DNA of 55,319 bases, counting the filler, from Jimgerdemannia flammicorona (lineage: Eukaryota): the NCBI GenBank assembly GCA_003990765.1. It is 2 parts of 2 records of this genome, joined end to end, with 100 filler letters (N's around TTAATTAATTAA, not from the genome) between each part and the next. Parts side by side here need not be neighbours in the genome. Positions count along the whole stretch, not along the records: positions 27,729 to 55,319 come from RBNJ01000619.1; 1 more part is not named here. One strand, written 5' to 3'. Positions 9,874-49,251 of the stretch are shown here, piece after piece (position 1 is the first letter of the stretch; every line of letters begins with the position of its first letter). A model generated the notes under the pieces. The model saw only the letters and a list, made by a program, of their open reading frames with translations. It did no database searches and was not told the DNA's origin. The position numbers and the translations under genes were made by a program.

Positions 9874-10716
9874 TTTGCTTATTAGTATTAATATAATAAA
9901 TTAAAGTATTTGTTATTAAATAATATATCTTCAACTTAATAATAGCTATAGTTAGTACTAAATAAATAATATTCAGCTCTTCTATATGTTTTCAAATTTC
10001 TTGATCATTATCCTCTAATATATCTATTAGAAAGTTATAAATAGGAATAGAAGAATAAATCATTAGATATTTATAATGAGCTGCAAGATCTATTACTTAT
10101 TTAAAGTACTTTAGCATACTAATAATATCTTTTAGTATTTGCTAAGTATAGTCTTCTATAGTATATTTTCACAAATCTTGATTAGTTATAATATTGAGGT
10201 TAAAGACTATTAATAAATTAATTTATTAGATTATTTGAAAAAAAAAAACTGAAAAATAAAAAAACTAAATATAATATAATCAGCTTATCTCTAATAATTC
10301 TAAGATCTGTTCAACTATTAAATATATTGAATTCTATTGAGTTTTAATGTCCAAAGTAAGTTCTTTTTGAATTATAGACTCTAAAAGCTTTATATTATAT
10401 AATAAATCTCTCTCAATATTATAATAATAACTAGATCTTGATAATAATTAATTAGAGCTTTGAAATTATTTCTTCAAAACTATCTTTACTCACATTAGTA
10501 TCAGCTTTTAAATAGACTAAAAAGGTTTGAACAGCTAAATTAATAATATAAGTCAGGTAGAATATATGTTATATATATTAACTAATAGTTAAGACTAGTA
10601 TAATCAAACTCTATTCTAATTGTTTGAAAAAACATAGTATTATTGGATGTATTATCTGTTGTTATAGTTAATATCTAGAGTAAAAAATTAATAATTTAAA
10701 TATAAGATAACTTTTC

Positions 10717-10885
10717 TTTTTCAAAAATCCAACCTTTTTTTTTGAAAACTCAACCATTTTTGAAAATCCAACCTTTTTGAAAACCTGATCTTTTTGAAAA
10801 CTGACCTTTTTTGAAAACCCAACCTTTTTTGAAAACTTAACCTTTTTCAAAAACTCAACCTTTTTAAAATATAATCTTTTTGAAA
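10717..10885. repeat. ~17-bp tandem repeat (TTTTTGAAAACYCAACC-like), ~10 copies
   Basis: Repeated TTTTTGAAAATCCAACC / TTTTTGAAAACTCAACC / TTTTTGAAAACCCAACC variants. Confidence 0.85.
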
Positions 10886-11275
10886 GGCTTATTTTCTACA
10901 TATCTTCATCTATATGCCAAAATCTCAAATATAGTTCACAAAGACACCAGTAAGATTTTCATCCAAATGAGATTCTGATAGCTTCACAAAATCAATCAAT
11001 ATATAGTTAAGTTATCAATTTTAACAAATTCAGTATATATTAATTCTAAGAAATATATATATATTAGATAATATCTATGTATTATAATGGTTGATCTGAA
11101 TTAGTAATATGAATTAGAAGAATAGACATTTGATCATAGTACCTAAATCTGATTCTCAAATATAATAGTCTTACAAATAGCAGTTATATTTTATAAATAT
11201 AGAAACTTTAATAGATGTTAAAGTATTTACAAATATTAAAATATATAAAGATATTAAGAATTAATACTTATGTAA

Positions 11276-19700: not shown

Positions 19701-20313
19701 GTGGCACTGCTATATAAGAACAAGAGTAGGAGGGAGGACTGGAAGAACTGGAGGCTGATCATGCTATTGGATATAGACAGAAAGTTGATTACTAAGGTGG
19801 TAGTAGTGAGGCTGCAAAAGGTAGCCCAGCAGGTCTTGAGGGTAGAGCAGTGGGGATTTGTCAGAGGCCAACTTATTCAGGATAGCATAGCTTGGATATA
19901 TGGTATTATTAAAGAGACATAGACCTGTAGATTAGATGGGCACCTGGTCTTATTGGATCAGGAGAAGGCATATGACTGTGTTCAGAGGGTCTGGTTGGCT
20001 AAGATACTAGATAGAATTGAAGTCTCTCATTAGTTCTAAGCAGCAATGGTCAGTCTACTAAAAAGGAGCAGGGCTGCACTCATATATACATAATGAGCAT
20101 CAAGAGATAGCTTTCCCTCTGGGTAGGAGTGTTTTCCAGGGGGACCTGCTGTCTCTCATTTTGTATGCACTCTCCTTAGAGCTCTTAATGGATAGAATTT
20201 GGCAGAAGATAGAAGAGCTTTCAGTTTATAGCATTGAGTGGAAAGTTGATACTTTTGCAGATGATATGGTAGTAGGCCTGGGTTTGATTACTGATGTTGA
20301 GGAACTCAAGGAG
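16747..20313 (+). mobile_element. L1/Tx1-type LINE, copy B (5'-truncated inside ORF1, interrupted just after the RT FADD motif)
   Basis: Starts mid-ORF1; APE relic from ~18140; RT motifs LLYKNKSRREDWKNWRLIMLLDIDRKL, EQWGFVRGQLIQD, LDQEKAYD, GVFQGDLLS and DTFADDMVVG. Confidence 0.9.
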
Positions 20314-20325
20314 ACTACCTGTGAG

Positions 20326-23300: not shown

Positions 23301-25238
23301 CAGTTGGTATTTGGTGGATGAGGATGAAGGAGATGGCCAGGACCTTCTGGAGTGAGACTGGGAAGGAGACAGGGAAACAGAGGAGATGGTGGGTGAAGTG
23401 GGCTTCTAGTAGACTGTCTAGACTCTTAGAGGACTGGGCAAGACTGGTGACATTGGAGGGGGAGGAGGACTGGAGATTGATAAGGGTAAGAATGGAGGTG
23501 GTTGAGCTATAACAGGTGCTGCAAAATGAGGAAGAGGCAAGGGTCCAGGGTCTGGCAGTGCAGCTTCATTGACAGGGATTGGAGGAAGGGGAGCAGCCCT
23601 CAAAGTTTCTCACAAGAGTCCTTTAGGTGAGAAGAGTGCAACAAAGATGAGAGGGGGTGCTGAATGCTGATGGTACATTGGTGTATAGTGTGCAAGACAT
23701 TCTTGGATCATTAAAGGAGCATTGGAGTGGATTGTGGAGTGAAGAGGAGAGTGGGGCAGATACTGAGGACATTGACTGAGTATTGGAGGATTGGCACCCT
23801 ACATGAGCAGATGAGCTGAGTAACTTAGTAATACTGGTACAAGAGGAGGAGATCCACCAGATTCTTGCCATAACAACCTTGGGTATAGTACCTAGAGAGG
23901 ATAGTCTGCTCTGGGACTTCTGGAAAATGATGGTGGAAGTTCTAGGAGTACTGGGAGAGATGACAGCACTGTGTGATTGAATTCTACAGACAGGGAGATA
24001 GGTGGGGGAACAGGATCTGGGGCTGGTGATGTTGCTTTATAAGAACAAAGGAAGGTGAGAGAACTGGAAGAACTGGAGACCAATTATGTTACTGGATATG
24101 GACAGAAAGTTGGTTACCAAGGTGGTGGTCACAAGGTTGCAAAAGGTGGCCCAGCAAGTCTTGGGTAATGAGCAGAGGGGCTTTGTGAGAGGCCAGCTCA
24201 TCAGGGATGGCATAGCATGGGTTCATGGAGTTATTGAAGGGGTGCGAGCCAGTGGACTGGATGGGCATCTGGTCTTTCTGGACCAGGAGAAGACTTATGA
24301 CTGAGTGCAACAGGTCTGGCTGGTGAAAGTATTGGATAGAATTGGGGTCCTGCACTAGTTCAGGACAGTCATGGTCAGCCTTCTGGAAGAAAGTAGGACT
24401 GCACTCATATGTAATAGACACAGAGGGGTAGCATTTCCCCTGGGTAGGGGGGTGCTCCAGGGGGACCCACTGTCCCCCATCTTGTATGCTCTTTCTCTGG
24501 AGCCCTTTATGGACAGAATCAGGCAGAAGATAGTGAGGCTCTCTATCTTTGGCATTAGGTGGAAAGTAGGGGCATTTGCAGATGACATGGTGGTCAGCCT
24601 GGGATTAATTGCAGATGTTAGAAAGCTCAAGGAAATAGTGGAGTGGTATGAGATGAACTCTGGGACTAGGCTTAATTGGTATAAGTATAAAACAATGGTG
24701 TTAGACAATAGTCTGGTGAGAGGGGAGATTATTGGTACCATTGTCCCTGCTGGTGAGGCAGTAAGTACTTGGGTATTTATCTGTCAGTATATGGGTCAGT
24801 TCTGTTCAGACTTTAGTGGGAGCAGAGGGTTGGTATCTGAGAGGAGGCCCTGTGGAGTTGGGGGGGCTGCCAATTGTCTCTGGCAGGATGTGTTTTGATT
24901 CTGAACATCTATTGGCTACCAAAGTTATAGTATCTGGCTTATCATCTGGACTTCCTAGCTTGGGTGATGAAGTGATTGATGAAGCTGACCAAGAGATAGA
25001 TCTGGACTGGAAGGAGGAGTCAGATCAGCTGAGAGGTTTTGTCCTTACTGGTGGTGAGTGAGAGACTTGGGCTGGTTGACTTTCCTAAGAGGCTACACTG
25101 CTTAAGAGCATGGTGGCTGAAGAGAGCAGTGGAGTTGAGAGGGGGTGGTTGGGTCCCTCTACTGCAGAAAGTCTGGGAGATGAGATCTTCTCTGAGGGGT
25201 TCAACTGGTGATCTCCTAGCACTTGTTGGCCTTCAGAA
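20326..25238 (+). mobile_element. L1/Tx1-type LINE, copy C (5' end present, interrupted downstream of RT)
   Basis: 5'UTR and ORF1 (RVSFAEMVK); APE motifs (YTHWAGGLETRIDWIL, PWSDY, GPGHWCLNSSLL); RT motifs (FLDQEKTYD, GRGVLQGDPLSPILY, VGAFADDMVV); LGLVDFPKRL. Confidence 0.92.
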
Positions 25239-25251
25239 TACAGAACAATTG

Positions 25252-27628
25252 CAACATCTCTTTCCAGTACCATTCAGGTTATACAACCTTTGGAAGGCAC
25301 TTTTGACATCGTTTTCAGCAAGAAGAGACTAACAACATGACAACCAACAGGCAACCTGAGGTGCATACTGGGCAGGGCAGCCCAAGCACTTTCGACTGGC
25401 AGCAGGTGGGGAGGGGTCCAGGCCTGGGGGGAGGTATGAGGGGCCTGCTGGCAGGTGGACATGGAAGGGGTGGAGGAGGTGGTGGAGGATCAGGATCTGG
25501 GAGGGTAAGCTTTGTGGAGATGGTGAAGGGGAGACAGCAGGCGTCGGGGCTGGAGGGCTGGCTGAGGAAGAGCAAGGAGACTGAGAAGGCACCAGTGCTG
25601 GGGGGGGTGGCCCTTGGAAGGGGGGGTGGTAGAGCTACAGGAGTAGTAGCTGGGGGGGGTGTGACTGCTGATAGTGTTGGGACTGTCGATCTGGAAAAAA
25701 ATCCAGATGTGATGGCTGATGGCGAGGCTGAGTAGCTGAGGCTTAGAAGACAAGGGGACTTGGTGGATGGTGTAATGGGTCTGGCGGTGGCTCCGTTACT
25801 CAAGAAATCGATTTCGGCATTCGTGGTCACACTGTGCTTCCAGGGCCTGGCGGTGACGGCAAAAATGGTGCTGGGGCTCATCACTAAGCAGGTGGCAGGT
25901 GCAGCATCTGTGAAGTTTTTGAAGGGACTAGAAGGGGTGGAGGTGGGTTTTGAGGAGGCGGCACCGCTGGAGGAGGTGCTGAAGGTTGGATTGGTGGTTG
26001 GGGAGGTGTGTGTTCCAATGGCGCAGTGCCTGAAGTGGGACCCCAGGGTGGTCCAACTGCTGGTGAAAGAAGTGCCGATGGTGACAGCGATAGAGACAAG
26101 GAAGAGGGTTGAGGATTTCATGGCAGAATATGGCAAGGTGGTGGATATCAGGTTCAGGGTCTGGGAAGGGACCTCGCTCAGGACTAGTGATATGGATGTG
26201 AGGATTTGGCTGGCTGGGAAAGAAGCCACTGGGAAGGCAAGGGATTGGCCTTTGGTGATGGTCTGGGGAGCAATTCTGTGTAAGGTGACAAGGGTGAAGG
26301 AGAGTGAGGAGGAGGAGGAGGATTTACTGGAAGTACTCGAAGAGCTGGGGGGTACTGTGGAGAGGCGAGCAAAGGCTTGGGAGGCTTTTGAAGAGGCAAC
26401 ATACTTGGAGGTGGTGGATGGAAAGTGGATTCGAGTGACCAAGGAGCAGTGGAAAAGGGCTCAGGGGCATAAGAGGCAGAAGGAGTTGCTGGCCAAGCTG
26501 GATAGCAGACCACTGGGGGAGGTGAGCAAGGTGAAGGACACAGGGGGAGCTGGAGCGAGTGTCTGGGCCGGCGAGGGGGAGGGGAAGGACAAGAAGGAGG
26601 CGGGGGAGGACAAGAAGAAGGCTGGGAAGGACCCGTATGCAGATGGTACACTGGAGGTGTGGGAGGAGGACTGGGTGGGCTCCCCTACCCCTACCCCTCT
26701 CATCAGGCATGGCCCGGCTTCCCGGAATAGGGTGGTGGAAGATGTGTCAATGTGTGGGGCCCAGAGGGTACAATTTGGAGTTCCTGAGGTAGTATATGGG
26801 GGACAGATGGTGGCGGCTGGTGAGGAGGAGCTGGTGGATGTCCCAGAAGTATGGGATGAGTCTGCAAGTGCTGGAGCTGACACCACAATGTTGGATGGAG
26901 GGAGGCCAATGACTCTGGGGGGGAAAGAGGTGGGAAACTTGCTTTGGATGTGCCAGATGATGAATAACCTGGTGGTAGAAGAGTTGGGGGAAGTGGACTT
27001 GCGAGTGATGAGTGATGAGTATTGGGCAGGAATACTGCAGGGGGATGGCGTAATGAAGGCATTGAAGACAGAAATTCTTGCAGTGTACCTGGAGGAAGAA
27101 GGGTATGAGGTGGATAAGGAGAGGGAGGAGGAGATGGCAGTTGTTGCTGGAGAAAGGGCTGAATACTGCTGGAATAAGCAGTATGGACTATAGCTCTGGC
27201 AGGAAGCATATATTGAATACTGAGAGGAGTTTGAGGAGAAGGCCAATGGAGAGATGAATGAGCTTCTGGCTAGATTAGAGGCTCAGAGGGCAGAAGAGGA
27301 GGAGGTGGCTGCGGAACATAATTTGGACAAGGCACAGGAGGAGATGAGCATGGAGCAGTAGAGGCAGACTGATGACATCACATATATCATCAATATGAAC
27401 AGTACAACCAACATTTTCTCTTTGAACATGAATGGGTTACAGGGCACTTCTCAATGTAGGAACATTTTTACTTAGATGAAGGGATTGGAGGCCGATATCT
27501 TCCTCTTGCAGGATGTCCGGTGCAAAGATGACTCTAATAGATTAGAATGGACGAAGGAATGGAGAGGTGCAGTGATTTGGAAGGGCAAGGTTGGGATTTT
27601 GGTTAGGAAAGGCAGAGGGGAGAAAAAA
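25252..27628 (+). mobile_element. L1/Tx1-type LINE, copy D (least decayed; 5'UTR, ORF1 25337-27361, start of ORF2 from 27395; runs into gap)
   Basis: ORF1 stays in one frame for 675 codons with only three internal stops (TAG 25733, TAG 27191, TGA 27221). It retains CpGs. ORF2 begins MNSTTNIFSLNMNGL..EADIFLLQDVRC (APE N-terminus). Confidence 0.92.
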
Positions 27629-27728
27629 NNNNNNNNNNNNNNNNNNNNNNNNNNNNNNNNNNNNNNNNNNNNTTAATTAATTAANNNNNNNNNNNNNNNN
27701 NNNNNNNNNNNNNNNNNNNNNNNNNNNN
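27629..27728. other. Artificial scaffold/contig linker: 44 N + TTAATTAATTAA + 44 N
   Basis: Exactly 100 nt with a palindromic six-frame stop cassette at the centre. True gap length and adjacency across it are unknown. Confidence 0.97.
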
Positions 27729-28584
27729 GCATGCCTGAGAACCCAATGTATGTACAAGGCCACGCCCGAGCCGAATAGAATAGCCCCTGCCACCCCAAAG
27801 AGAATGACAGGCAAAGAAAAAACCCTCATCAAAGCACAACACGGTGGGTAGGGCCTGGTTCTCCCAGTTGAGGTGAGTAAAGGACTTATACGTGAGGCGG
27901 GAGGAAACCCCCAATACCCACTTAGTGCTATATCCATATTCAGCATAGTCCAGATAGCCCCTCACTAGTATAAATACCACCTCCCCCAGACCTCAGAATC
28001 TCAGACTGAAATACACATGAACATTCCTGAATACTTCTCCACAGTATTTCTTTACACAACTACTCCTAGTATAGCAATATCATGAATAGCAAATAAACCT
28101 ATTTAATAATCCACAAACTACTCTTAAGTAAATCTGCTCCCTATTAGGTCCCACTCCTAACCCTGTCATGAAATTTCCTAATTGGGTATTGTCTGCAGCA
28201 ATACACCAATTCAACTAAGCTGGTCTTAGTTTCTTGAACTTTCTGAAATATAGAAAATCCTGAACATCCAGAACTAGTCTGAAAAAGGACTTTGGTTGAG
28301 ACATCAACCCGATCTTGAAATCAATAAGTGTAGAGGAAGTACTCTATACAAAATTAATCTTGAGCATAAGAAAATAGTCTTCCAAAATATCCAGAACTTC
28401 CAGAAAACCCTTCCAGAACTATGTAATGGTTACCCTAAAAAGCAACCCTCTTACATACTGTCCTGTAATAGATATAGCAAACCACACTAAAGTAGAGGGG
28501 GTAAAGTTAGAGAAAAAGGGACCCAGATAGTTGCCCACTAATACCTTATGCTGGTATGATAGCACAAATGTGACTAGATGTCTG
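27729..28584 (-). mobile_element. Fragments of the second non-LTR family (related to 5400-6593): young 3' segment plus older 5' end
   Basis: 27729-27920 aligns with ~5655-5850 but retains CpG. 28457-28584 resembles ~6470-6593 and begins CAGACATCT on the minus strand. Confidence 0.65.
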
Positions 28585-33600: not shown

Positions 33601-36600
33601 CTTTGCATCAAGTCGCGAATGGTCTCGAGAACAGCCTTGAAATTGTTTTCCTATAAAATATCAGATAATATCAAATGTGTGGATGTTAAAACTAAAGTGT
33701 TCGACGGGGATGTAAGAATGCGGATACAGAAAAAGAATACGTGGATAGAGGGCTTACCTTCGGTTTTCTTCGAACAAGGACGTTGAACGTTTCATGTACA
33801 TCCTCTCCCTCCTTGCGGTTATATCGGTCCATGTCCATCTACATGCCGACGGAATACAATATGCGATGAGTGAAGTTAGTTGTTTATTGGAGACCTAAGG
33901 CCGCAATACATAGATTATAACACTGACCTTGTACTGGTTCGGATCCAACCAGACCCTCAACGTTCTATTCGATCCGCCCAATTTGGGATTCTTGTCGTCA
34001 ATCCGGGGTTTCCCGACTTCATCAATCGGCTTACCTAGTTCAAGATGTAAGCGAGCGTATCACATGAGCATATCGCCTTTCATAGCGCGGAGTCATAATG
34101 GAATCAGGAATATCTCTCACCATCCGATCCAATGAGGTCCGCGATCTCGCAACCTCTGACGTATTTCAATCCAAAATGCTGTCGGAACTCAGTGTCATCC
34201 TTGTATCGATCGCCGCTCGCGTCATGCGCTTGGATCGTCAGCAGAAACATAATGTCGTGTTGCCTTAGAGAATCCCATTCACCTTTGATCGAGTCTGTGA
34301 AGCGACCCAAGTTAAATGTGATCTGTGGGTGTGAACAACGGAATGTTAACGGGTCGGACAGTCGGAGAAGGTTGGAATGGAACGACATCATTTCTCAAAC
34401 CCCTGCAGAGCGACTTAACCATAGTAACGGTAAATACAAAAGAATCTTACATCGGCTTTTACATGTGCAGGCTTGTTTTCTCCCAAATTCGGTTTTGCGA
34501 CATCGACGATGCTACATCACCGAGGTATGAAAGGTACTATTAAGACCGCCTGTGATGGATTTCTGTTTCTATCGCATCTCCCCCAAAGGCCCTTACCTAA
34601 AATTTTGGATTGACACCGCCATCCTCGCCCACCCAGAGAACTCGGTCTTACGATCTGGATAGGTTAATCTGGGCGCAAGGCGCTTCACCACATCCTCGAT
34701 GTCCTGTCGGATCTGGTATGTGCTTTCCAATCGAAAAAGATTAAAATTCCGCAGCAGGTAGTCGTGAATGGTTAGGAACTGCAGGTTCAATTTCGGCAGC
34801 GCTAGCGGCGTATCTCCGGAATAGAACTGCGTCTTGACAAGTGTGTCGTTGAAGAGGGTGAACTAAGTCGAATAAGAGAGATCTAGTTAGTAAACAGCGG
34901 CTACGATAAAATGCACAACGGTATTGCAAGCACGAAGCACACCTCGTCGGGATACAGCGGCATTGCGTTGATGGCCTCAATCTGACTGGTCCGTTTCTCA
35001 AACTTCTGCACCAATCCTTCCACCAGCAATTCACGTTTATCGACTCCCTGCACATCAACCAACAAGTCACTGCGTATCCCCAGATGATCGCAAAGTTTTA
35101 CAAGATCACCGTCATCCAATTGCTTGAATTGCTTCAATAATTCCGGGCGACGCTCGATGGAAGCGAGATTCGACAGAGCGATATCCGACAAAGAATTTTT
35201 GAAGTGCTTGAACGCGATGAGCTGTGGAAAGCGATAAGACGTGGTATTGATAAAAGCGCTCAAGATATTTCACAAACGGAAAATGTGCGGCGGTATTTGT
35301 TCGCCTACCTGCAATTCCATCAACCTCCCACAATGCAACTCCGTCATCTGCGAATCCGTCAGGGCCAGTCCAGTATGGTCGTTAATTTCGAATCCAGCGT
35401 AGAACCTCAGAATCTCCAACAACTGATTAAATAGATTGCTGTATAAGCCAAAGAAAAAAGAGCGGTTCAAATATTAAACAAAATGATCGAAATAATACTT
35501 GTCAGGAGGTTTGGGTATCAATGATAAAGTCGTGAAAAACACACCAACCTGCCCTGCTTGCGCTTCACAATTGGCGCCATCTTGCAAAGTATCAACACTT
35601 GATGATCATCTAAAAGCATATTGAAATGTCGCCGTGTCGGCAGCTGTGCCTCTAGGTCGATGAGGAATTCCAGAAAACGTTCGCAGTAACGGATCGAGTC
35701 TGTGGGGGCTGGTCCTGTTGATGACAGCGAGCAGATGCGTGAGAATCCGAATATCTCCTAAAACAACGCTACCAACATAAAAAAAAATTGAATACACTAT
35801 TTACCATCTTCAGATTCAGGGATGGTGTATAGAATTTTGATGAACTCTTTCAACATCACGCTGAGCCACGATCGTTCGAATTCCATTTTCTTTCGCGTAG
35901 CTTGGTCTAGATTTGCGTAGAAGTAAATGCCAGATCATATCGGCCAGGTAGTCATTAAAACATTGACGTACAAAGAGGATAGTTATGGTAGAACACAAAA
36001 TCAGACGTACCACTACCCTCGAATTTCTTTTCTATTGCGTTCCACATCTTCTTCAAAGGTGAGTAGTGTTTAAACTGTTGCTCTCTCCTCGATGGATTTG
36101 CAAGGCAATGCCATATGGAAAGCGATACGAGTCTGTGGGAGTACGGGCAGGATAGATAGTGTCAATGGAGCGCCAGGGATACGGTTACTCAGACGCATGT
36201 ATGTATGTCTACAATGTCTAAAAACCACTTACCTCATGCATTCCGATCGTACGATGGGGTTCTCCAAACTCTGGAACGCATTGATCATAAACACCAACAA
36301 AAATCGGCGTACGTGCAAAGTTAACTCGTCCGAAGTCAGATCGTCCACAAGCGGCGAAACCATAATGTGTAGGACGCGCGTGAAAAACCCATAAAATTTG
36401 GTGGGATTGGACATAAACGCATCTGTTGATGTTAAGAAGTGAAACCGAATTTGTGAGAAACACGAATATGATTGACCGAGTTCTATAACAACGGAGGCAA
36501 ACGACAAATGACATACCCCATGGCGATACTCGCTGTCGAAACTTCTCATTGATCATGAGGACGATGGAAAGCACGTAAACAGAAGAGGCATCCGTCTCAT

Positions 36601-37009
36601 TGAAATTGGGCCATAAGTACTATACGGTAGATTGGCAGGAGGGGTTTATAAGTATTTTCGTCACCTGTTTCGTAATTCGTAATGGTCAAATATAATACTA
36701 AAGTTGGGCCAAACCCTGCGCTACAAGAATAAGTCGTGTACAGAAATGACAGCGTACCTTTTCCAAGTACTGACTAAACTCGAGGAGCATAATCTTCCTA
36801 ATGTTGAAGTTGGTCTTGACCAACTCGTCCCTATAAATGCTCTTCACGATGCCAAAGTCCCAACTGACGTGGCCTTCTTTGTTGGACCATAACTTTTCGG
36901 CCACGATAGAGACAGAATCAGCCTGAATCTCGGCGAGAGTTGGATACTGAACGCCACGGCTGGACTCGGTGGAGTTAGCATGGAGGGGGAGGGTTGATTT
37001 CCTATCCAT
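30634..37009 (-). CDS. AQR: Intron-binding spliceosomal RNA helicase Aquarius (Cwf11/IBP160), many exons
   Basis: [54 protein letters not shown]-loop [89 protein letters not shown]; acidic last exon ending KRDEE* at 30634. Confidence 0.96.
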
Positions 37010-37662
37010 CGCAATGAGGAGAGACGCGTGTTTGTGAATGTTTACAAGACAAAACTATGTGGCGTCCGTGACATCACAGTCTACGGTCACATGACATAAT
37101 GGAACTGACAGTCACCGACGAATTCTTCCCATAACTTGTATAACAGGCTCTTCGTAATTTGTAGAATTAATATTGACAAGAGCGTTTTTTGTTGACATGA
37201 TAAAGTAGAGTTAAAATAGCACGTTTTGTAGAAATACTAGGCATAGCCTAACGATCTCCTGGAAAAGGGATGTTTGGCTTCACATAAGAATCCAAAAAAA
37301 TAAAATCATTCGCACCGTTAATATGGCTGCATTCCCATGACATCCGGTGGATAGCTCGCCCTTGCAGACCTTTGACAACATCGACGACATAGGCAGGACT
37401 CAGATCGCGTACAAATGCTGCTACCAGAACATCTACGTAACTATGTCTTATGGATCAACTCCGACTCAGATGGCTATCCAACCCCAACATCTATATTCTT
37501 GACACCGATAACCCTGCGGCGATCACTTGCAAGGTGAATCAGTGACTCCAGGCAGCGAAGAACGGTAGCTTTTGGTGTACAATGATGCCGACGACAACCT
37601 AGGCCAGGCCCAAATCTATAACCTGCTTCTTTCATCAGAAAATACAGAAAGAAGAAACCCTC

Positions 37663-37663
<1 letters not shown>

Positions 37664-37731
<68 letters not shown>
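37664..37731. repeat. 68-nt poly(A) homopolymer followed by GAAAAA-like units
   Basis: Read directly from the sequence. Confidence 0.9.
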
Positions 37732-37733
<2 letters not shown>

Positions 37734-39257
37734 AAAAGAAAAAGAAAGGAAAAGAACTGGATGGCCGTTCCCAATCTGCAAGTCATTGTGGTCGATCCAA
37801 CCAGTGGTGTTGACCCAGTAAACGTTACCACGCTTGTAGTAATTGAATTTCTTTGACGTAGATGTGGTTTGGTTGCGTCGTCCTGGTAGAAGCCGTCTGC
37901 AATTATGTGAAGGGAGACGGAAGAATCCATGTTAACATTAAATGGATGAGAATAAGCTGCAAAAATAAAAATAAAAAAAAGTCACCCCAAGGTGTGCATA
38001 GGCTGTGGCTTACAGCTCTTGAAGTTCCAGGGAGCTAAAACTTGTTGACACCAGTTGCCGTTCTCGGTCTGGCGGAAGAGATAGGACAGGGAGGAAGCCT
38101 TCAGTAAGCCGGCATGAATACGCAACGAAATAGGAATGAAATGTATAACGTACCAGTACTGGAATGATTGCCCCCCCCAGCACAATTGATCCGTCTATCG
38201 GAATACAAAAAAGGTAAACTCCATGAGCATCACTTACAACCTTTACAAGCCTCCAAAGGTATATGTGATAATGAAAAAATTTACCAAACAGATTCCTGGG
38301 TACGCGATCTGATTATCTGTATGATTTCGTCAATAGAGAAACTATTAAAAATCAATGCCCATAGTTACAAATACCAAGCGTTGAAAGGTAGGAAAAAAAA
38401 AAAAGAAAAAAAAAAAGAGATCTCACGTTCAACACCGAAGTACTCGCAGGTCAACCAGGCGTAGGAAGAGAGACCTCTTCTGCGGCATATTGACCCTAAG
38501 ATCGGAACAAATAGAATAAGGAGTAGATAAATGAGTATGGTCGACGGGATGGAAATAAAATAAATGGACATTATAAAGAAAGTACGTACAGAGAGAGAGA
38601 GTCGCCGATGATTGGTACTCAGCAAAATAAAATAATGAATAAACGAGTGACGAATATAACAGCCACAATCCCACCCTGGCATTCCAACTGACCACCGAAA
38701 AATTAATATAATGCTTCTTCCCATCCAGACCGCTCGCCAACAACACTTCAGTCCCTGACGTGACATTCAGGTATTGTCAGTTATTCGAATCGATCTTGAA
38801 CCCGACCATAGTGGGGCTAATTGTTTGCGAGCCAAAGGCTAAACCAAACTTTGATAGAAAAAGTAAGCGTTACGATTTGGCAATAGTAAATCGGTTAGGA
38901 AAGAAACGAAGGGTGAGTGCGGAGAATACGTAAGTGATTGGTGGGAAGAAATAATCACCTGGCTACTTTCAAAGTATATACGTCTTGAAGCCGGGAACAG
39001 CTGCAAATGTCAACGAAGAGGACGGTCTCGAACTAAACATTAAACATCCAAACAATAATTAACTGACAAAGAACTCGCTACTCACACCACTATGACGTAT
39101 GATTGCTATCCCGCCGTCCTGTCCAATAAATCTCCTCACTATTCGGCGAGACAGTCTTCTTCGCCAGGAGGGTTGTGATGAGGGTTGAGGTGAGCATTGT
39201 TGGTGTTTGTAGGCTCACCTGACAAAAATGTGAGCTGTGAGGTATGTGAAAGGTGCA

Positions 39258-40856
39258 GATCTCGGAGTATGTCAGAACTATGTGAAGCAATGGGGTGCGA
39301 CTGCGCAATGGAATCAAGCTCACGATGTGTGCGTGTTCGCTGATTCCCCTCCTGTTCATTTCATTTCTCAGGGAATAGCATCGGCGACGAGGGGGCATGC
39401 GCCCTAGCCGAGTGTTTGAAGCAGAACACGGCCTCGACCTCGCTGGATCTCGGAGGTATGTCAAAACAAGCAATGGATTGCAGCTGCGCAATGGAATCAA
39501 GCTCACGATGTGTGCGTGTTCGCTGATTCCCCTCCTGCTCATTTCATTCTCTCAGGGAACAGCATCGGCGACGAGGGGGCACGCGCCCTAGCCGAGGGGT
39601 TGAAGCAGAAAATGACCTTGACCTCGCTGGATCTCGGAGGTATGTCAGAACTGTGTGAAGCAATGGATTGCGGCTGCGCAATGGAATCAAGCTCACGATG
39701 TGTGCGTGTTCGCTGATTCCCCTCCTGTTCATTTCATTTCTCAGGGAACAGCATCGGCCACGGGGGAGCACGCGCCCTAGCCGAGTGTTTGAAGCAGAAC
39801 ACGACCTTGACCTCACTGGATCTCGGAAGTATGTCAGAACTGTGTGAAGCAATGGGGAGCGGCTGTGCAATGGAATCAAGCTCACGATGTGTGCGTGTTC
39901 GCTGATTCCCTTCCTGCTCATTTCATTTTCTCAGGGAACGGCATCGGCCACGAGGGGGCACACGCCCTAGCCGAGTGTTTGAAGCAGAACACGACCTTGA
40001 CCTCGCTGGATCTCCAATGTATGTCAAAACTGTGTGAAGCAAAATGGGGTGCAGCTGCGCAATGGAATCAAGCTCACGATGTATGCGTGTTCGCTGATTC
40101 CCCTCCTGCTCATTTTATTTTCTCAGGTAACAGCATCGGCCACGAGGGGGCACGCGCCCTAGCCGAGTGTTTGAAGCAGAACACGACCTTGACCTCGCTG
40201 GATCTCCAATGTATGTCAGAACTGTGTGAAGCAATGGGATGCGGCTGCGCAATGGAATCAAGCTCACGATGTGTGCGTGTTCGCTGATTCCCCTCCTGCT
40301 CATTTCATTTTCTCAGGGAACAGCATCGGCCACGAGGGGGCACGCGCCCTAGCCGAGTGTTTGAAGCAGAACACGACCTTGACCTCGCTGGATCTCGGAA
40401 GTATGTCAGAACTGTGTGAAGCAATGGGGTGCGGCTGCGCAATGGAATCAAGCTCACGATGTGTGCGTGTTCGCTGATTCCCTTGCTGCTCATTTCATTT
40501 CTTAGACAACAGCATCGGCGACGAGGGGGCATGCGCCCTAGCCGAGGGTTTGAAGCAGAACATGACCTTGACCTCGCTGGATCTCGGAAGTATGTCAGAA
40601 CTATGTGAAGCAATGGGGTGCGGCTGCGCAATGGAATCAAGCTCACGATGTGTGCGTGTTCGCTGATTCCACTCCTGCTCATTTCGTTTCTCAGACAACA
40701 GCATCGGCGGCGAGGGGGCACGCGCCCTAGCCGAGTGTTTGAAGCAGAACACGACCTTGACCTCGCTGGATCTCGGAAGTATGTATGTCAGAACTATGTG
40801 AAGCAATGGGGTGCGGCTGCGCAATGGAATCAAGCTCACGATGTGTGCGTGATCGC
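39258..40856 (+). repeat. Tandem array of ~190-bp exon+intron units (8 complete exons; 8 complete introns plus a truncated ninth)
   Basis: Near-identical introns of 100-108 nt (GTATGT...GCTGAT...YAG) alternate with 84-nt exons. Confidence 0.97.
39372..40778 (+). pseudogene. RI-like (NLRC3-type) leucine-rich-repeat gene fragment: eight 84-nt exons, no visible 5' end
   Basis: Exons 39372-39455, 39556-39639, 39745-39828, 39935-40018, 40127-40210, 40317-40400, 40506-40589 and 40695-40778 are each open. They encode xNSIG[D/H/G]EGA[R/C/H]ALAE[C/G]LKQNTTLTSLDL[G/Q], and all introns are phase 1. Functional status is uncertain. Confidence 0.85.
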
Positions 40857-41130
40857 AAGCAGGTGCATAGATTTGTACATTAAGGGTTTTGTGAGAAAAG
40901 CGACGCCCAGATATAGGCGAGCAAAGGCACTAATCATCTCCATTGAAGCTTTAAGATCACTTAATTACATAAATAGAAACAGTCAGGACGAAAACGGTTA
41001 CAACATCTGATAGAATTCCAGAACTTTCATTGCACATTTTTAATATAATGCCCTCTAAAGTATATACACCGCAAGTTTGCAAACATGGATGAAAAATCCG
41101 AATAAATGGATATGTATACAATTGATTGAG

Positions 41131-41398
41131 TTATATCCCGACAACCACATTCTTTAACTCGGCTAGGGCGTGTGCCCCCTCGTGGCCGATGCTGTTGTCT
41201 GAGAAATGAAATGAGCAGGAGGGATCGTGAGCTCGATTCCATTGCGCAGCCGCACCCCATTGCTCCACACAATTCTGACATACCTCGGAGATCCAGCGAG
41301 GTCAAGGTCGTGTTCTGCTTCAAACACTCGGCTGGGGCGCGTGCCCCCTCGTGGCCGATGCTGTTGTCTGAAAAATGAAATGAGCAGGAGGGGAATCA
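41131..41398 (-). pseudogene. Inverted 3' end of the LRR gene: exon 9 (41367-41284, 84 nt) and terminal exon (41198-41131, ends TAA)
   Basis: The minus strand reads NSIGHEGARAPAECLKQNTTLTSLDLR, then NSIGHEGAHALAELKNVVVGI*. The intervening intron lacks ~20 nt, including the GCTGAT branch motif. Confidence 0.82.
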
Positions 41399-42485
41399 GC
41401 TTGGTAGTCATTGTTCTACTCCAAGTACCCTCCCAATACAATCTTGTGCACGTTTCGCTCCCGCAACCGAGTAAGCTCCCAAGATTCTGTGCATTGTGCT
41501 GTGTGGTGTTTGAATTATCCAACAAAATACCCGTGGGATTGTCACGTTATCACGATGACGAAGTAACCCGATATTATTTCTTTGAGGTTATGAAGTTTAG
41601 TGCTCAAACGGAGTAAAAAACTATAATTCGATTTATCTGAATCAAGAGCTTAATCCTCAAAATCGGATCCAATCGAACCGAATCACGCCGCAACACCCAC
41701 GCAAACTCCGCTGGACGACTTTTTCTCGCAGCGATATTAGCACAAGGAGACATCGTAAAGGTGCGGGCCGAATGCGAGCAGCCGTTGACGCAGTACGAAC
41801 TTCTGACCTATGGTGTTCTGTTTCCCCTAATGCAGGTCATATGCTTTCCCTGGAAATGTAATCACTAATTAAAGCAAGCATGAACGAAGAGTTTTCTGAG
41901 AATTTTTGATACGATACAAATCGTTCTCATCCTATCGGCATGAAATGACTTTGTCTAAACTCCGCATCAGTTTGCCCGATATTCTTATGGTTACCTCTGA
42001 CTTCGTCGATAACGGCGGGATTCCAAAACTCGGACATCGGGCATACGCAAATTCGTTTGGAAAGATTTTCTCAGTGACCGAAACTAATCTATATTAAAGC
42101 GAGCGATATTTAACCTGCCAATCGACTGATTTCCGCAGCAAATTATGTCGGCATGACAGTTTGTAGTGTATAAACTCGTGGAGTGTTTTCCAGCAGGTTA
42201 GATCGTTTGGCAATCAATGACACCAAAGTCGATTCACCGGATGATGAAACCTTCGACACGCACCAACAAACGCATTTGATGATACCACCGCCATATGCCT
42301 TATTACACCGACAAAAATAAATAAAACGGAATACTTTGTTACGCTATAAAGCTAAAGACCGGGATTTAAAATATCTTAATATTATTTTCCGCCTTGGCCA
42401 ACGGTCGATGGTATTATTCTAGATTCATGGAAATCTTACAATATGGCGAAGTACAGAATTCAAATTCCGTAGGACCAGGGCCAGC

Positions 42486-45400
42486 TTAGACACGACGGAC
42501 AGCCTTGTTGTAATTAGGACTCTCTACATCATTCACTTTAATACCGCCACAGTAGGCACCCAAAATCTCGATGTTGAAGTTTGCTAACTCACTGCTATTG
42601 GCGTTGAAAGAAATTACGCCAATGGCCACGGTGTTTTGCCCGTTGTGCTTAATAATGCCTTCAGGGACAGGGAAGACGGTCTGAGGGCCGAGCGCATTAG
42701 CTGTGAGACAGGAAAATGATGAGTCAGTTTTTTTTTCTTTCGGGACAACTCGTATATATATATATCAATATATTATTAGAGAATAACTTACCGTATTTGC
42801 CAAATTGCCATCCGTTAACATAAAAGATAGCGCGATATTCCTTTGACTTGTCGTCGGTGAAGCGGAAAGCAAGTGGGACGTCGTGACCCGAGGGAATGTT
42901 GAGGTTGAATGTGGTACGGAACCAAGCGACACCAGGTTGCTTGAAGTTGTACGGCAAAGAGACTGATTGCCATTTGGAGTCGCTGAATCCAGGAAGATGC
43001 CATCCAGCACGTTCGCCGTAAAGGCCACCCTCGTTATACGGGCCTCTCACTTTATCGACGATATCTTCGCCACCGAGGTTGCCCTGAACCTTCCATTTAA
43101 TAGCTGTATTGTTACCGCCAACCAAGAGAGCCTTGCCAAATCCACGAGCGGACTTGAATTGATCATCCACGTTCCAGTCTTCATCGTGGCCTGAGGTGAG
43201 CAACAAGAGGGAAATCGAGTTTTCTCCCGATTTAACTTGGCCCTTGGAGAAAGTATACGTGGCATTCGCAGAAGAGGAGGTTGCCGGGATTGGAGTGCCA
43301 CCAAGGTATTCTCCGTTCAACCAAGCAAGGTACCCAGATCCATTACCACCTTGACCTAGCAATTCGAGACCGGTGATTGCGGAAGGCCCGTTGAATTTTC
43401 CGCGGAACCAGATACTTCCGGTATGGTAGCCATAATCATCAGCGTAGAGAACAGGCAAAGTTTCGGGTTGCGTGATGCTGTTTGTAGTCGAATGGTTGGC
43501 AACGATCCAATTACTGTCGTCAAAATTGGGGTCGGTTTCAGGGGAGGCCCAGTTGAACTTCCACTTCGCCTTCAACAAATTCGGCACAGTAATCTTGGCA
43601 GGGCCAGCGAGTTTTCCGACCAGTGTACCGTACAGAGTCGTTTGAACGGAGATCTTTTCGCCATTCCATGTAACGGTTTTCACAGTCTCAGGTGCCACAA
43701 TCTCGATAGTCGTAGTAGCATTGGTGTCACCACGCAAAGCCAAAGTAGTTCCCTTCAATGAGGCACCACGCACCAGATAAGGACCATAAACGAGCACGGT
43801 CTGCTTGTCGTCCACCTTGGGCGCCCAGAACTTGATGGCGTCATCATACCCAGTAAGGTAGAGCAAAAGATCAGGTTCCGCAGCACCGGTGATAACCACT
43901 GGCGTGATGCCCTGATGTTTATAGTTGAGTCTCAAGGTTGTGCCATTGACGCATGTAGTCACGGGGTTGTTGCCAAAGGATTTGACGGCGGGTTTGGCGC
44001 TCCTATTGACTTTGAGCGCGGTCTCGCCATCTTCGCCTTCAAAAGCGTAGAGCAAAGCGACATTGCGTTTACCGATTTGGGCGTGGGTGAAAATTTCGTT
44101 GGTAGAGTACACCAAGTGGTGGGAACCGAAATCGTAACCAGTAACAATAATCTTTGAGTCGCGTCCATCCAAAGTAATAGCTGTGCTAGCTTGTTGAGGA
44201 ATGGTGAAGGTGCCATCGGTGCTGTTGACGTTGAGGTGGAAGGTATCATGCACCAACGATGAGCTGTTTTGGTGACGGACAATGTAGAACTGTGTTCCAG
44301 TGTAGACGTCTTGCAGGGTGTCAACACGGATGTCGCTATTGTCAGCCGTTGAGCCGTTAAACCAAAAGGTGGTAGAAAACGGTTTGACAGTTTGAGTAAA
44401 GTGTCCTTGAAGCTTGAGCTCGCCGTACTTGTACGGCAATTGACGTGACTCGGAAATACCGCCAGCGTAATCGTAGGAAGTGTAGACACCAGGGTAACCG
44501 ATGTTACCCCAGTTCGTACCGCCATAAGTCATGTAAAGATTCAGCATGGTCACCCCTTGGGCGTAGTTGTTCTTATAGAAGACTCTTTCAAATTGATAAT
44601 TGATCAAAGTTGCGCATTTTTCATAGCCTACGCCACCCCAGGGATCGAAGGCACCGCCTTGGAATTCGGGAATGTAAAGGGGCTCGGTAGGATTGAAGGA
44701 TTCGTGGTATCCTCTCCAATAGGTTTGAGCTGAGCCCGGCCAGATGTTGGGGTTCGTGCAGTCGAAGCCTTGAGGGTATGAGTCGAATCTGCAAGACAAA
44801 TATGAAAATATAATGAATAACAAGGGAATAGTATTATAATTGAACCCTGTAGGTTGGTAATGTTGGCCTACCCATAAATATCGACAGCACCTACACCGTG
44901 TCCAAAAGAGCTGTTAGTCCAAGCATCGTTGAAAGTAAGGGGGCTGGTATTAAAAAAATAAAACAAAAAACAAAAAAATAAAAATCAATATTGATCACAT
45001 CGATTCAGCTATTGCAGTCCTTGTAATGAACTTGAAATACATACACGATCACCCCATCTGCGCGGAACTTGTCTTCTAGGGCTTGCATATAACTTGGCTA
45101 CGAGAAACAAACCCAATACGTATAAGGAACCGAAACAACATTACATCGGAATTTTCAATTTGCTCATTGGCCGCTACTGACATCTTGATGGAGGTCGTAT
45201 TCGTTTTCTGTGAAGTAATCATCCATTAGACTCGTGAACACAATGCCCCCGTGGGGACGCACATATACACACCCACACATACACACATATTGAAGATAAA
45301 CTTACCGACTTGATTCAAAATGACTGGCCCTTTATTGGTGATCTGGTTCTTGGCGATGTAAGGGTCGATGGCGGACAGCCATTCAGTCCAAGCAGCAGTA

Positions 45401-46192
45401 TATTCGGGGCTGTAGACACGAGTCAAGTCTTTTGTGGTTGTAAGCCATCCTGGGAAGCCGCCGGAGTCCTAAAAATTGAATGGCGGCAACTTAGAATTAT
45501 TGTGAATTTGCGAGTCATGAAGGATGTAATTATGTAACTTACGACTTCGGCGTTGATATAAGGACCTGTATAGAAAATTAATCTTCTGTACATAAAATAA
45601 AATAATCAAGGGAAACACAAAAGAAATCAAACATACCAGCTCGAGAAATAATGTAAATGCCCACTTCGTTGGCGATGTCGAACAATTTTTGAACATCGCG
45701 AATTCCGGTGAAATCATATTCTCCCGATTTCGGCGAGTGATATCCCCAGCTCTTACCGTCCACAATAAGCAAAAATTAATCACACGCTTTGCGCTACTGG
45801 AGAAAAAAAAAATAAAAGGGCAATAAGCCCACTATCATCATCTTTTCAAGTAACTTACGAAGTATACACTAGCAGCATTGAAACCAGCGGCCTTCATTTT
45901 TTCCAAGACATCCTTCCATAGGTCGGGGGACGGTAAGCGGTAGTACTAAATAGATCAAACCATCGAAATCAGTTCAATTTTTCTTAGGCTTTCTGCAGCA
46001 GAACCCATATAAACATTTACAACTTACATGAAATTCTCCTGAAAAAACGAACACGCGTTCATTGTGGATACTCAGAGAATATTTATCCCAAGTCACGGCG
46101 GTCTGGAGAGCGCGGGTACGAAGAGCAGTTTGGGCGCCCACAAGGAGGGACAATGCATAGGTAATGAAATAGCACCAGTTTTTTGCGACCAT
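42486..46192 (-). CDS. Secreted beta-galactosidase, glycoside hydrolase family 35 (fungal LacA-type, multi-exon)
   Basis: Signal-peptide-like N-terminus; [29 protein letters not shown]; acid/base motif ILNQVENEY; nucleophile motif [50 protein letters not shown]; last exon [16 protein letters not shown] at 42486. Confidence 0.95.
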
Positions 46193-46709
46193 GATTGGAA
46201 TATGTTTAAATATCCAAGAGTGGTTTTGGTTTTCTAGCGTTGGCTTTTATATTGAAATAGATCAATTGAGCGCGAACCATCATCTTGTGATTTATTAAAT
46301 GTTACATGGGACCCAAACAGATTGGCTACAATGTCCGCCAACCACGACTGACATTCTCAAAAAAAATGCCTCAACTGGCCAAAAATTTCCCAACTGGTCA
46401 TTGAAGTTGAGCATCGGATGCATCGTGTTGTGAAGCACACTCGCTCATACGCAGCGATGGTTCCTTAGCAGACAATACAGGCAATACTTATACATTTGGA
46501 AAATCGTGGTACGACCTGGAAGGACGAGAAAATTCCTATTTGGCCAGTATACTATAGAAATATGGACCGGCAATAGAAAATAGCCGCGATTGCCGAAGAT
46601 GGCCTAGCCAAGGTACGTCATATCCTACCACACTAGGCTCTCTCTTGTGCGATGCCGAAGCCAAGTGTACTACAGGTATGGGTCGAACTATCCGGATTTT
46701 CGAGGTCCT

Positions 46710-46744
<35 letters not shown>

Positions 46745-47530
46745 ACAATTGGTCTCGATGCTGAAATGCACACTGTCAACTGTCAATGTCAAGACACGCT
46801 AAATAATGGACAAAGAGTTATCGACGTGTTTGTTTGGACATATACCATGAAAGGATGCCCACACTATTTAACTTTGGATTAACACTTAGTTTCGTGGCTG
46901 TACACCCGTTTTAATAATCCGATAAACGCTCATAAAGTTAGCCTAACTGCCAGTTTGTCTCGTCACTTTGCCTTATATAATTATATAGATGGCATTACCA
47001 TTGATTCAAAATTATGGCGCTTACTTTCGATTACGACATGTGACTGAACCGTAAGCATTCTAGAGTCGTGAACGAGTGACAAGATTACAAACCGCCGGCT
47101 TGAGTTTCCGAACTCACCTCCCGGACAATGGCATGAGGAAATGAAATAGATTATGCTATTTAGGTTACGTAGATGAGCGTGTACATATAATTATACGCTA
47201 TCGTTTTCTGAACGAAAAGCAGCTACATCCAGAAAATCGACGCCTTCTTTAAATATCTATACATCCAAACGGGAACCCGCCGCAGGTAATAGAGATAGAA
47301 AGGGAAACTAAAAAAGGTCAGGAAGCATATGTTATGAAACTGCCGATGAGGTTCGGGGAATCATATTTCCTAGGTGTCATCCGCCAACTAATTAAACAAC
47401 CCCTTTGTGCAGTTCTAATTTTCTGAGGATGACCTCACCAACTTAATTATGTCAAGCCGCGAAGCAGTCATTTCTGTTCTTGTCGATGAAATAAAATCAT
47501 TTCTCTCAAGTCTCGTTTGCAATTATGCAG

Positions 47531-49251
47531 ATGTTGCCCATATATGGCATGTGCCCCACTACAGATATTACGAAGACCTCCTGCGGCTATATCCAGGACA
47601 GCAGCACATTCAAGACTACATCTTTCCGCTTGACAAGCTAGTAAGATGGATGTTTCTGATTATTCATTCAATCGTTCCGCAATCTGATCGCTTACAATCG
47701 CCAGCTCTGATCAAACTGACTTTCGATTATCTCTCACCTTAAGAAAATGGCATTGCCCGTGGGGTCCAAGTTGATCCTCGATCAGTGCAGGTGTGGTTGG
47801 AGCATACAGACAACACCGAACCATACATCTTGAGAAGAGAAAATTGTTCAAATGTCGCCAAATGTAGTACCGACACAGTCTCCGGGCGCCGGTTTCTAGA
47901 CGATATCGCCAAGTATAAATCCTCAATCAATTTATCGCGTACGTTCCGAACTTTGCAATTATGAATCCGTCTATCGCCTATTTTTCCTTCAACCCACTTA
48001 ACCTTCCTTTGCTCTTCGCCCAAATGGTTGCGTCGAACACGGGCTACTACGATGCGACAGCCGCGGCGCGTGAGCACGCGGGGCTCTTCATTAAAAAAAA
48101 CTGGGATAAACTGAACAACGGATCAAATTGGAAGAATTGTCGGTGGAAGAAGATCGGAGCAATTTTGGGCCAGGTGGTGGCCGCGCTGAAAAACGAGCAG
48201 GCATACAAACTTCAGTGTCAGGAACATGCGCAGATCATACATGGGACTCGTCATGCCATTTTCTATCGATCTCACGGCTACCGCAATCCGCCAACGCGAA
48301 TTCACGAAGAAGATGGTGGTCGGAATGAGTTTCGGTAAGCCTGAGATACTTTCAAACTGCGTTAAGCGATATTTCATGTTCTTGATGCTCATGAAGAAAT
48401 TTAGGAACATCCAGGATACAGAGGGTCTGTGCCGACACTCGCTATTGATTAGTATAATGTATAAAATGCTCTGGATGAATACAATTTCGTTTTGTTGTGG
48501 ATTTCGTCCTTTTATTGACATTCAACAATATTCAACCATTCCGTAGATCTGGCTTGGCATACACACCAGCTAAGCGCGTCCAAATATCGCGCGTATACCA
48601 CCCAAGCATTTGGTAGGGTCACTAGTCATGACAATATCAGAAAAGGAAAGCCAGAGAGTAGTTTCGTTCAAACGGCCTGGCGATGGCACAATACCTACAA
48701 AGGTATAAATTGTGCCAATGTAATTTCCTTTTTCTAAGAGAATTTCTTTTGACAAACTGTCATCCATCTTGCAAATGTCCTCCAACTAGAACCGTACACG
48801 TGCGAGAGAGAGCCTTGTCTCCAAATACTTGAGCGTTGGTAGGGTCGGTGTGAGTATCATCTTCCCACCCTACGGCATTTATGTCATCGTCAAGGCTATC
48901 AGGCGAAGAAAGATGGACGTGCGGACGGACGAACGGGCGAGCGGACGGGCGAGCGGACGGGCAAGTGGGATCGTAAGTGTGCTATTTTTTACTTTTACTT
49001 TTAAATATAGCCCGGTAGTCATTTTTAGTGCACACTTTTTACTCTCGCACGAATTCTCGTCATTTCAATTCAACCAACACCCCGTTCACACAGCATGTGG
49101 CGTGGTCTACCCAGTATACTTCGCTGGCGCCTGTGGCGGCGGGATGTGCGCAGCCGGCACGTGCGGCGTTGACACCAGCGGGAGCGGTGGGGTGGTGGAT
49201 GCAGTGGTGGCGGAGCTGGATGCGGCGGATGCGGCGGTGCGGGTTTCGTGA
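47531..49251 (+). pseudogene. Glycine-rich domain-containing protein (GRDP/DUF1399) pseudogene
   Basis: Motifs DVAHIWH..RYYEDLLR, PFSIDLTATAIRQREFTKKM, RYFMFLMLM, VPTLAI/DLAWHTHQL and a Gly/Cys tail (AGACGGGMCAAGTCG) lie in different frames. The expected donor at 48448 reads ATTAGT. The 5' boundary is uncertain. Confidence 0.75.

Follow-up and report, generated by a model that had tools for sequence, protein, structure and literature searches.

The window analysed here, a 55,319-nucleotide stretch of DNA from the fungus Jimgerdemannia flammicorona (Endogonales, Mucoromycota; GenBank assembly GCA_003990765.1), contains at 39258-40856 a tandem array of short exons and introns encoding leucine-rich repeats (LRRs) of the ribonuclease inhibitor (RI) type. 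Probably this array is what remains of one member of a cassette-built RI-type LRR family with other members in J. flammicorona: a relic that is headless, partly inverted and drifting neutrally. In annotation terms it is most likely an unprocessed pseudogene fragment from a multi-copy LRR gene family. Its coding start and end are gone, and the locus carries several disabling rearrangements: a truncated exon stub, a broken intron, an inverted continuation, a deletion of a presumptive branch site, and half an exon.

Single-repeat exons and broken ends

Tandem Repeats Finder reports a single array at these positions, with a period of 189, 8.4 copies and 92% matches, and a script that split it at GT and AG signals placed the exon and intron borders (Table 1). 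There are eight complete exons, each of exactly 84 nucleotides (nt), and eight complete introns, all in phase 1 (the codon is split after its first base). Every complete intron begins with GTATGT and contains GCTGATTCC, with a CTGAT motif that resembles a branch site; seven of the eight end in CAG and one in TAG. An earlier note on this DNA had described the exons and the intron phase in the same terms, and had pointed out that symmetric exons of this kind (84 nt, phase 1 at both ends) keep the frame when units are gained or lost; both statements hold. Computed joining of the exons gives one open frame of 224 codons, that is eight 28-residue repeats, with two in-frame methionine codons, in exons 2 and 7.

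The pattern N-S-I-G-[DHG]-E-G-A-[RCH]-A-L-A-E-[CG]-L-K-Q-N-T-T-L-T-S-L-D-L-[GQ]-x is common to all eight exons and has the 28-29-residue period and the L/N/I/G/A/L core positions of RI-type repeats. Pfam agrees with the earlier note that the repeat is RI-like: LRR_6 (PF13516) matches a read-through open reading frame (ORF) at 39811-40287 with an E value of 3.2e-8 and 33.5 bits, against a cut-off of 23.4. This ORF consists of exon 4, the 108-nt intron 5 and exon 5, and reaches 158 amino acids because intron 5 is free of stops in the exon frame. The same family scores 26.4 bits on the ORF at 39420-39716 and 22.1 bits, slightly under the cut-off, on that at 40193-40477. The closest solved chains are RI-like proteins, axonemal LRR proteins (LRRC34, DRC5) and NOD2-type LRR proteins. 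Judged by sequence, then, the array belongs to the RI-type LRR family; membership of any receptor family is unproven. Its likeness to RI-type (RNI-like, LRR_6) proteins runs along the register L-x-x-L-D-L-x-x-N-x-I-G-x-E-G-A-x-A-L-A-E-x-L-K-x-N and stands above the Pfam cut-off. It differs from them in being made of repeats only, with neither capping repeats nor an attached domain, and its repeats are about 91% identical to each other, whereas those of RI itself are far less alike.

Introns resemble each other as closely as exons do: mean pairwise identity is 91.4% for exons vs 93.2% for introns, and variable columns number 20 of 84 in exons vs 18 of 99 ungapped columns in introns (Fisher p 0.37). 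Whole exon-plus-intron modules would therefore be gained or lost, always with the frame kept; the earlier note's account of near-identical introns and of the exon with its intron as the amplified unit is borne out. No unusual fold was found that sets the introns apart (z -0.27 and -0.94 for introns, +0.35 for the exon), and a search of 38500-42000 against Rfam gave 0 matches at E up to 1. The introns may be conserved because the copies are young, or because selection favours homology-driven exchange or accurate splicing among identical exons.

Neither end of the array is that of a gene. Lacking a first and a last exon, it opens with a 9-nt exon stub, GATCTCGGA, which lacks one base of the normal exon end and so is out of frame with exon 1, and it closes inside a ninth intron, which breaks off after 78 nt, at canonical intron position 74, directly before CTGAT. 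Some 300 nt past the array end lies a 244-nt minus-strand piece (41157-41400, about 1.5 units). It opens with GCTGATTCC, the exact missing remainder of the ninth intron, with a 2-nt overlap (GC) with the break at 40856, and continues with exon 9, an 85-nt intron and 42 nt of exon 10 before passing into unrelated sequence. In exon 9 a proline (ARAPAE) occupies the core position at which leucine stands in all eight array exons, and four substitutions are also private to the piece. These ends and the inverted piece had escaped the earlier note. Their simplest reading would be that a 544-bp segment (40857-41400) was inverted, with the ninth intron cut at one of its ends, and that decay set in afterwards.

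The array copy is likewise without a recognisable head, tail or carrier element. LRR_6 was the only Pfam family above its curated cut-off around the array, both in 29 stop-to-stop ORFs of at least 100 amino acids (37474-41616) and in 24 ORFs of at least 55 amino acids (37248-42343); an ORF at 37569-37856 derived from poly(A) gave three weak sub-threshold matches, and antisense ORFs across the array matched no Pfam family. With 13 LRR proteins as queries (among them three NACHT-LRR proteins and a MYND-LRR protein of J. flammicorona), tblastn gave 423 matches, 0 of them outside 39200-41450, and no homology to the head of an LRR protein was found upstream of the array, nor any other domain in the whole of the gap that holds it. 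Capture by a transposable element was considered and rejected: within 36000-48000 only the units themselves repeat, inverted or direct, and there are no terminal repeats.

Table 1. Positions of the array, its ends and the inverted piece in the window
Feature	Positions	Strand	Remark
Exon stub, 9 nt, GATCTCGGA	39258..39266	+	Compared with the other exon ends
Intron 1, 105 nt	39267..39371	+	GTATGT...GCTGATTCC...CAG
LRR exon 1, 84 nt	39372..39455	+	Phase 1-1
Intron 2, 100 nt	39456..39555	+	6-nt deletion
LRR exon 2, 84 nt	39556..39639	+	
Intron 3, 105 nt	39640..39744	+	
LRR exon 3, 84 nt	39745..39828	+	
Intron 4, 106 nt	39829..39934	+	
LRR exon 4, 84 nt	39935..40018	+	Pfam LRR_6 on ORF 39811-40287
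Intron 5, 108 nt	40019..40126	+	No stop in the exon frame
LRR exon 5, 84 nt	40127..40210	+	
Intron 6, 106 nt	40211..40316	+	No notable fold
LRR exon 6, 84 nt	40317..40400	+	27 in-frame codons equal the array consensus
Intron 7, 105 nt	40401..40505	+	TAG end
LRR exon 7, 84 nt	40506..40589	+	
Intron 8, 105 nt	40590..40694	+	
LRR exon 8, 84 nt	40695..40778	+	
Ninth intron, 5' part, 78 nt	40779..40856	+	GTAT duplicated (4 nt) at the start
Unique spacer, 300 nt	40857..41156	.	Proposed part of an inverted segment, 40857-41400
Intron, 3' part	41368..41400	-	Starts with GCTGATTCC; complement of the break at 40856
LRR exon 9, 84 nt	41284..41367	-	Leu-to-Pro
Intron, 85 nt	41199..41283	-	About 20 nt short; lacks the stretch holding CTGAT
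LRR exon 10, first 42 nt	41157..41198	-	

Substitution pattern and competing readings

Are the differences among the units those of a gene under selection, or of copies left to drift? Measured against the array consensus, the distinct exon variants are synonymous in 3 cases and non-synonymous in 14, where 20.0 of the 81 sites are synonymous (binomial p 0.78). The variable exon columns fall on codon positions 1, 2 and 3 in the numbers 7, 7 and 6, and pN/pS, the non-synonymous to synonymous ratio, comes to 1.66 when summed over the 28 exon pairs and is not distinguishable from 1. All the substitution tests fit neutrality, each with low power (17 variants). The earlier note had seen the differences as clustered at a few residues; any clustering is within chance, since the 17 variants fall in 13 of 27 codons vs 12.8 expected from random placement by simulation (P(<=13) 0.69). 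Its observation that all exons are open is correct (8 of 8), but chance suffices to account for it: only 3.7% of single changes create a stop, so that it is no surprise to meet none among 17 variants (P 0.53). Length changes are indeed confined to introns, as it stated, yet no more so than expected by chance (P 0.05-0.17 for 3-5 events). The even, neutral-looking spread is the very pattern of neutral decay that the note had set against its own proposal of a diversifying recognition system, and this proposal thus gains no support from the array copy.

The variants are also shared in a mosaic fashion. Among 12 parsimony-informative sites all four combinations occur in 30 of 66 site pairs, and units 3-6 form an H-type block between D-type units. 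This fits unequal exchange or conversion among units, but the evidence for exchange is only moderate because several of the sites are CpG transitions, which can recur.

We propose the following history. In the family, each 28-residue repeat would be encoded by a symmetric 84-nt exon followed by a spliceosomal intron of about 105 nt, and out-of-register recombination or slippage between neighbouring units, as the anatomy suggests, would add or remove whole modules with the frame kept. The copy in the window would then have lost its head, the frame-shifted 9-nt stub being all that precedes the array, and its tail, when the 544-bp inversion broke the ninth intron. Decay of the inverted piece would have followed, giving the core Leu-to-Pro change, the intron without its presumptive branch site and the half exon, while the eight intact units would be young copies under neutral drift. 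Other members of the family are present in the same organism, and some intron-less joints described below would fit spliced RNA.

Several observations weigh against a relic. Eight consecutive exons are intact with all their splice signals and two of them carry in-frame methionine codons, so that the array could still be transcribed and spliced; short upstream exons that match no Pfam family could escape the scans; a pN/pS of 1.66 is also compatible with weak diversifying selection, the neutrality tests on 17 variants being low in power; and the inversion and the array ends could be assembly errors. Could the locus be a live gene, or part of one, coding for an LRR-only protein that begins at an internal methionine or supplying the C-terminal exons of a gene with unmatched 5' exons upstream? 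The open exons, the full splice signals of all eight complete introns and the two methionine codons speak for it, as do a stop met 9 codons after read-through from exon 8 into the broken intron, the intron-less family joints in runs of the same organism, and the LRR-only and MYND-LRR proteins annotated in J. flammicorona and its relatives (P0016 and others). It is nonetheless unlikely, though deserving of some weight: the stub ahead of exon 1 is out of frame, the upstream sequence shows no domain or LRR-protein head, the continuation of the array is inverted and damaged, and the tests give no sign of purifying selection.

The abrupt ends and the inverted piece might instead be artefacts of assembling a very repeat-rich genome, the true array being longer or lying elsewhere. 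Hundreds of look-alike contigs invite chimeric joins, and none of the contigs listed spans 40856/40857. We regard this as very unlikely given that the two breakpoints match as complements at the same intron position, overlapping by 2 nt, that the private changes of the inverted piece (Leu-to-Pro, the 20-nt deletion and the four substitutions) are those of a real inversion that has aged, that unique flanks on both sides are continuous with ordinary genes, and that runs of N are absent near the array (the only ones in the window are at 27629-27728). The earlier note's idea can be put in the form of a silent donor array, in which expressed members would receive sequence from headless cassettes by gene conversion or unequal exchange and so build a diversifying recognition repertoire, in the manner of the lamprey cassettes discussed below. 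Headless, tailless and inverted cassette pieces in an intergenic gap would suit such a role, and so would the mosaic variants, the many distinct family variants in the X1 and X2 runs (863 and 573 contigs, see below) and the non-synonymous excess, which is not significant. On the other side, no expressed acceptor gene, recombination signal, or somatic or between-nuclei variation was observed, several of the mosaic sites are CpG transitions, a change that mutation makes repeatedly, the variants are not clustered on particular residues, and a decaying fragment accounts more simply for the same anatomy. We regard this role as very unlikely. A relic of a cassette-built family remains our preferred reading, and the locus itself is probably a dead copy.

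Related units and the question of an NLR link

The LRR cassette family exists beyond the array locus. Three public runs contain parts of 36500-43500: X1, X2 and X3 (X3 is a soil metagenome; none is listed as RNA, X1 and X2 being labelled 'RNA?' by guess). They were compared with 40506-43500 at a likeness of at least 90%, a comparison whose contigs cannot separate the array copy from its paralogues. It gave 863 contigs in X1, 573 in X2 and 15 in X3, nearly all on LRR units. A few contigs cover the coding part of the neighbouring beta-galactosidase gene (family GH35) and they show no differences from it, so that X1 and X2 come from the same organism. Some contigs of X1 and X2 join an exon end to an exon start without an intron, at the predicted borders (for example 40778 to 40695, 'goes back 84'), and several such joints carry in-frame six-letter inserts such as TCTGGG. 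Others keep the intron, and the 3' tails of some of these differ (loose ends at 40664). A 160-nt contig of X2 has 97 letters on 42792-42888 and, by bin depths, the other 63 at 42638-42700. Since it skips a 91-nt GH35 intron, X2 may be taken to contain RNA; if it does, the intron-less joints are spliced family transcripts, and if not, they are intron-less genomic copies. The intron concerned (42701-42791, minus strand) appears spliced out in one X2 contig and partly kept in one X1 contig, by arithmetic on bin depths.

Contig depths, when summed, reach about 148,000 in the exon-8 bin, 665-4,600 in intron bins and about 3 on GH35, values that stand for neither copy number nor expression level. 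The window has a private A at each of the intron positions 40671 and 40796; at both, its own letter is absent from the contigs, which may simply have dropped such letters. Outside the inverted piece, contigs are missing from most of 40906-42505, which is uninformative.

In an index of 5.8 billion proteins, only three short soil-catalogue ORFs matched whole units (P0208, P0209, P0204), and these are read-through translations of the array's exon-plus-intron unit, whose intron they share. P0207 and P0208 are identical at 55 of 76 residues spanning intron-, exon- and intron-coded stretches, the intron being as conserved as the exon. Three environmental ORFs (P0210, P0213, P0220) have the same exon-intron-exon layout with different introns. 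The layout of one LRR exon with a repeated intron is thus wider than J. flammicorona, as the soil and environmental data show (X3, P0204, P0208-P0210, P0213, P0220). A metagenome match to the intron core at one locus, L001, was set aside as a chance match, the contig being AT-rich coding sequence without repeat or LRR, and the exon motif had 0 matches in the prokaryote genome collection. Our literature search found no description of this LRR cassette family; an LRR expansion may already be mentioned by Chang et al. 2019, who published the genome, or in their supplements.

Is the array tied to NOD-like receptors (NLRs)? An NLR has a NACHT or NB-ARC domain in the same gene as its repeats, and the array has neither within the window: none was found in the scanned window ORFs, although a head lost by a relic could escape such scans. 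The highest bit scores in the search labelled 'longer' belong to P0002-P0004, which are NACHT plus LRR_6 proteins. These were rejected as fungal NLRs. Their NACHT parts are nearest to clusters in which Arthropoda, Cnidaria, Chordata and Mollusca are the commonest phyla, in the ten listed of 30 matches (the best three, then the best of each further family set), and being most like animal clusters they provide no fungal link. Nor are their repeats any closer to the array than generic RI-type repeats. Nothing found here ties the array to an NLR or links it to a NACHT domain.

Exons of 84 nt in phase 1 are the size found in NOD1 and NLRC3, although no passage stating this turned up in the literature. 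What stands of the earlier note's comparison with vertebrate NOD/NLRC genes is the layout, in that each LRR of the zebrafish NLR-B30.2 genes lies on a single exon and their number ranges from 0-6 to more than 20 (PMC4852459). Splice variants of LRR length are described for NOD2 and NLRC5 (PMC5536018). The array likewise has one repeat per symmetric exon that can be added or skipped in frame, and it differs from the animal genes in being in a fungus, in having no NACHT found in the window, and in its short introns (about 105 nt), which are as conserved as the exons.

With regard to fungal NLRs, the earlier note's statement that those characterised use WD40, ANK or TPR repeats agrees with the literature: PMC4986451 attributes to these repeats a high internal identity, changes in repeat number and a proposed concerted evolution, and reports no LRR motifs among 5,616 fungal NLR candidates. 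A survey of 122 proteomes that included LRR profiles reports fungal NAIP-like NACHT proteins (N-NACHT) only with HEAT repeats (PMC12258605). The array resembles fungal NLRs in being a tandem of repeats with high internal identity; theirs are non-LRR repeats joined to a NOD domain, whereas those of the array are LRRs without one.

The named fungal matches are LRR-only or unknown-head proteins of Mortierellomycota, together with the MYND zinc finger-LRR protein P0016 of J. flammicorona, single repeats of which reach 58-67% identity in their best matches to array exons. The same repeat type, that of RNI-like LRRs of Mucoromycota and Mortierellomycota, is found in P0016 and in P0006, P0007, P0067 and P0107 (Lobosporangium, Dissophora, Mortierella), but none of these is close enough to be the parent of the array, their repeat identity being no higher than that of protist or amoeba-symbiont proteins. 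An exhaustive search returned 7,264 proteins at E up to 0.001, and the most identical repeats came alike from a eukaryote, from Mortierellomycota and from an amoeba symbiont. Given such mixed sources, repeat identity carries no family signal, and a taxonomy based on it was ruled out.

Four of the Mortierellomycota LRR_6 proteins (P0006, P0007, P0067, P0107) have a common N-terminal region of about 450-650 residues with IPRLF(I/V)VLP, then CECGEHT and later KWVC. A Pfam scan of P0006, P0007 and related proteins, which covered neither P0067 nor P0107, matched only LRR families. The N-terminal region of these P0006-type proteins appears to be an undescribed head domain on fungal RI-type repeats.

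A further comparison is with the variable lymphocyte receptors (VLRs) of lampreys, where headless LRR cassettes lie in both orientations near genes. The likeness of the array to them is anatomical only: no incomplete acceptor gene, deaminase link or somatic assembly is seen at the locus. Lamprey VLRs are mentioned in PMC4852459.

Setting of the array and its meaning for the family

The array sits in a 5.4-kb gap between two minus-strand genes. One encodes Aquarius, an intron-binding helicase (about 30.8-37.05 kb), and turns its 5' end to the gap; the other, the GH35 gene, turns its 3' end to it, with its stop at about 42486. Beyond GH35 are GRDP-like, PRELI and GAPDH genes. Over 91% of its length the 729-residue GH35 ORF matches an NCBI beta galactosidase [Jimgerdemannia flammicorona] (P0223) with 100% identity, in accordance with the fungal host given by the earlier note. 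A run of 84 A (92% pure) at 37664-37747, followed by GAAAAA repeats, lies about 600 nt upstream of the region where Aquarius starts and could have been left as a tail by a retroposed copy.

Elsewhere in the window, a 16-kb stretch (12000-28000) has an extreme strand asymmetry, with 33% G, 13% C, 29% A and 25% T and a GC skew of +0.38 to +0.53. Its CpG observed/expected ratio is 0.07 vs 1.05 in the rest of the window, and since T is not raised, simple C-to-T deamination is no explanation. Two plus-strand reverse-transcriptase (RVT_1) fragments, one at 19518-19922 and the other at 24359-24898, lie in the stretch, as do two N runs at 27629-27728. An AT-rich block (4000-12000, GC 0.21-0.32) with dense AT-rich tandem repeats of periods 9-69 nt lies between it and a region with M17 aminopeptidase and short-chain dehydrogenase.

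An early-diverging, plant-symbiotic fungus thus has a modular LRR exon layout like that of animal NLRs, with introns as conserved as the exons, and similar units abound both in the same organism's runs and in soil data. A bolder idea, which we hold to be quite unlikely, is that J. flammicorona, although fungi are said to be without LRR-type immune receptors, transcribes many RI-type LRR proteins built from cassettes, with near-identical introns as recombination handles by which single repeats are shuffled, gained and lost in frame, and headless arrays as donor stock. If true, this would be LRR-based variable recognition in a fungus, built like the LRR domains of animal NLRC proteins and used like VLR cassettes; a diversifying recognition system is a conjecture about the wider family, not shown by the array. 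The locus is of value because it points to the family and shows cleanly how identical introns allow an LRR domain to grow and shrink in frame.

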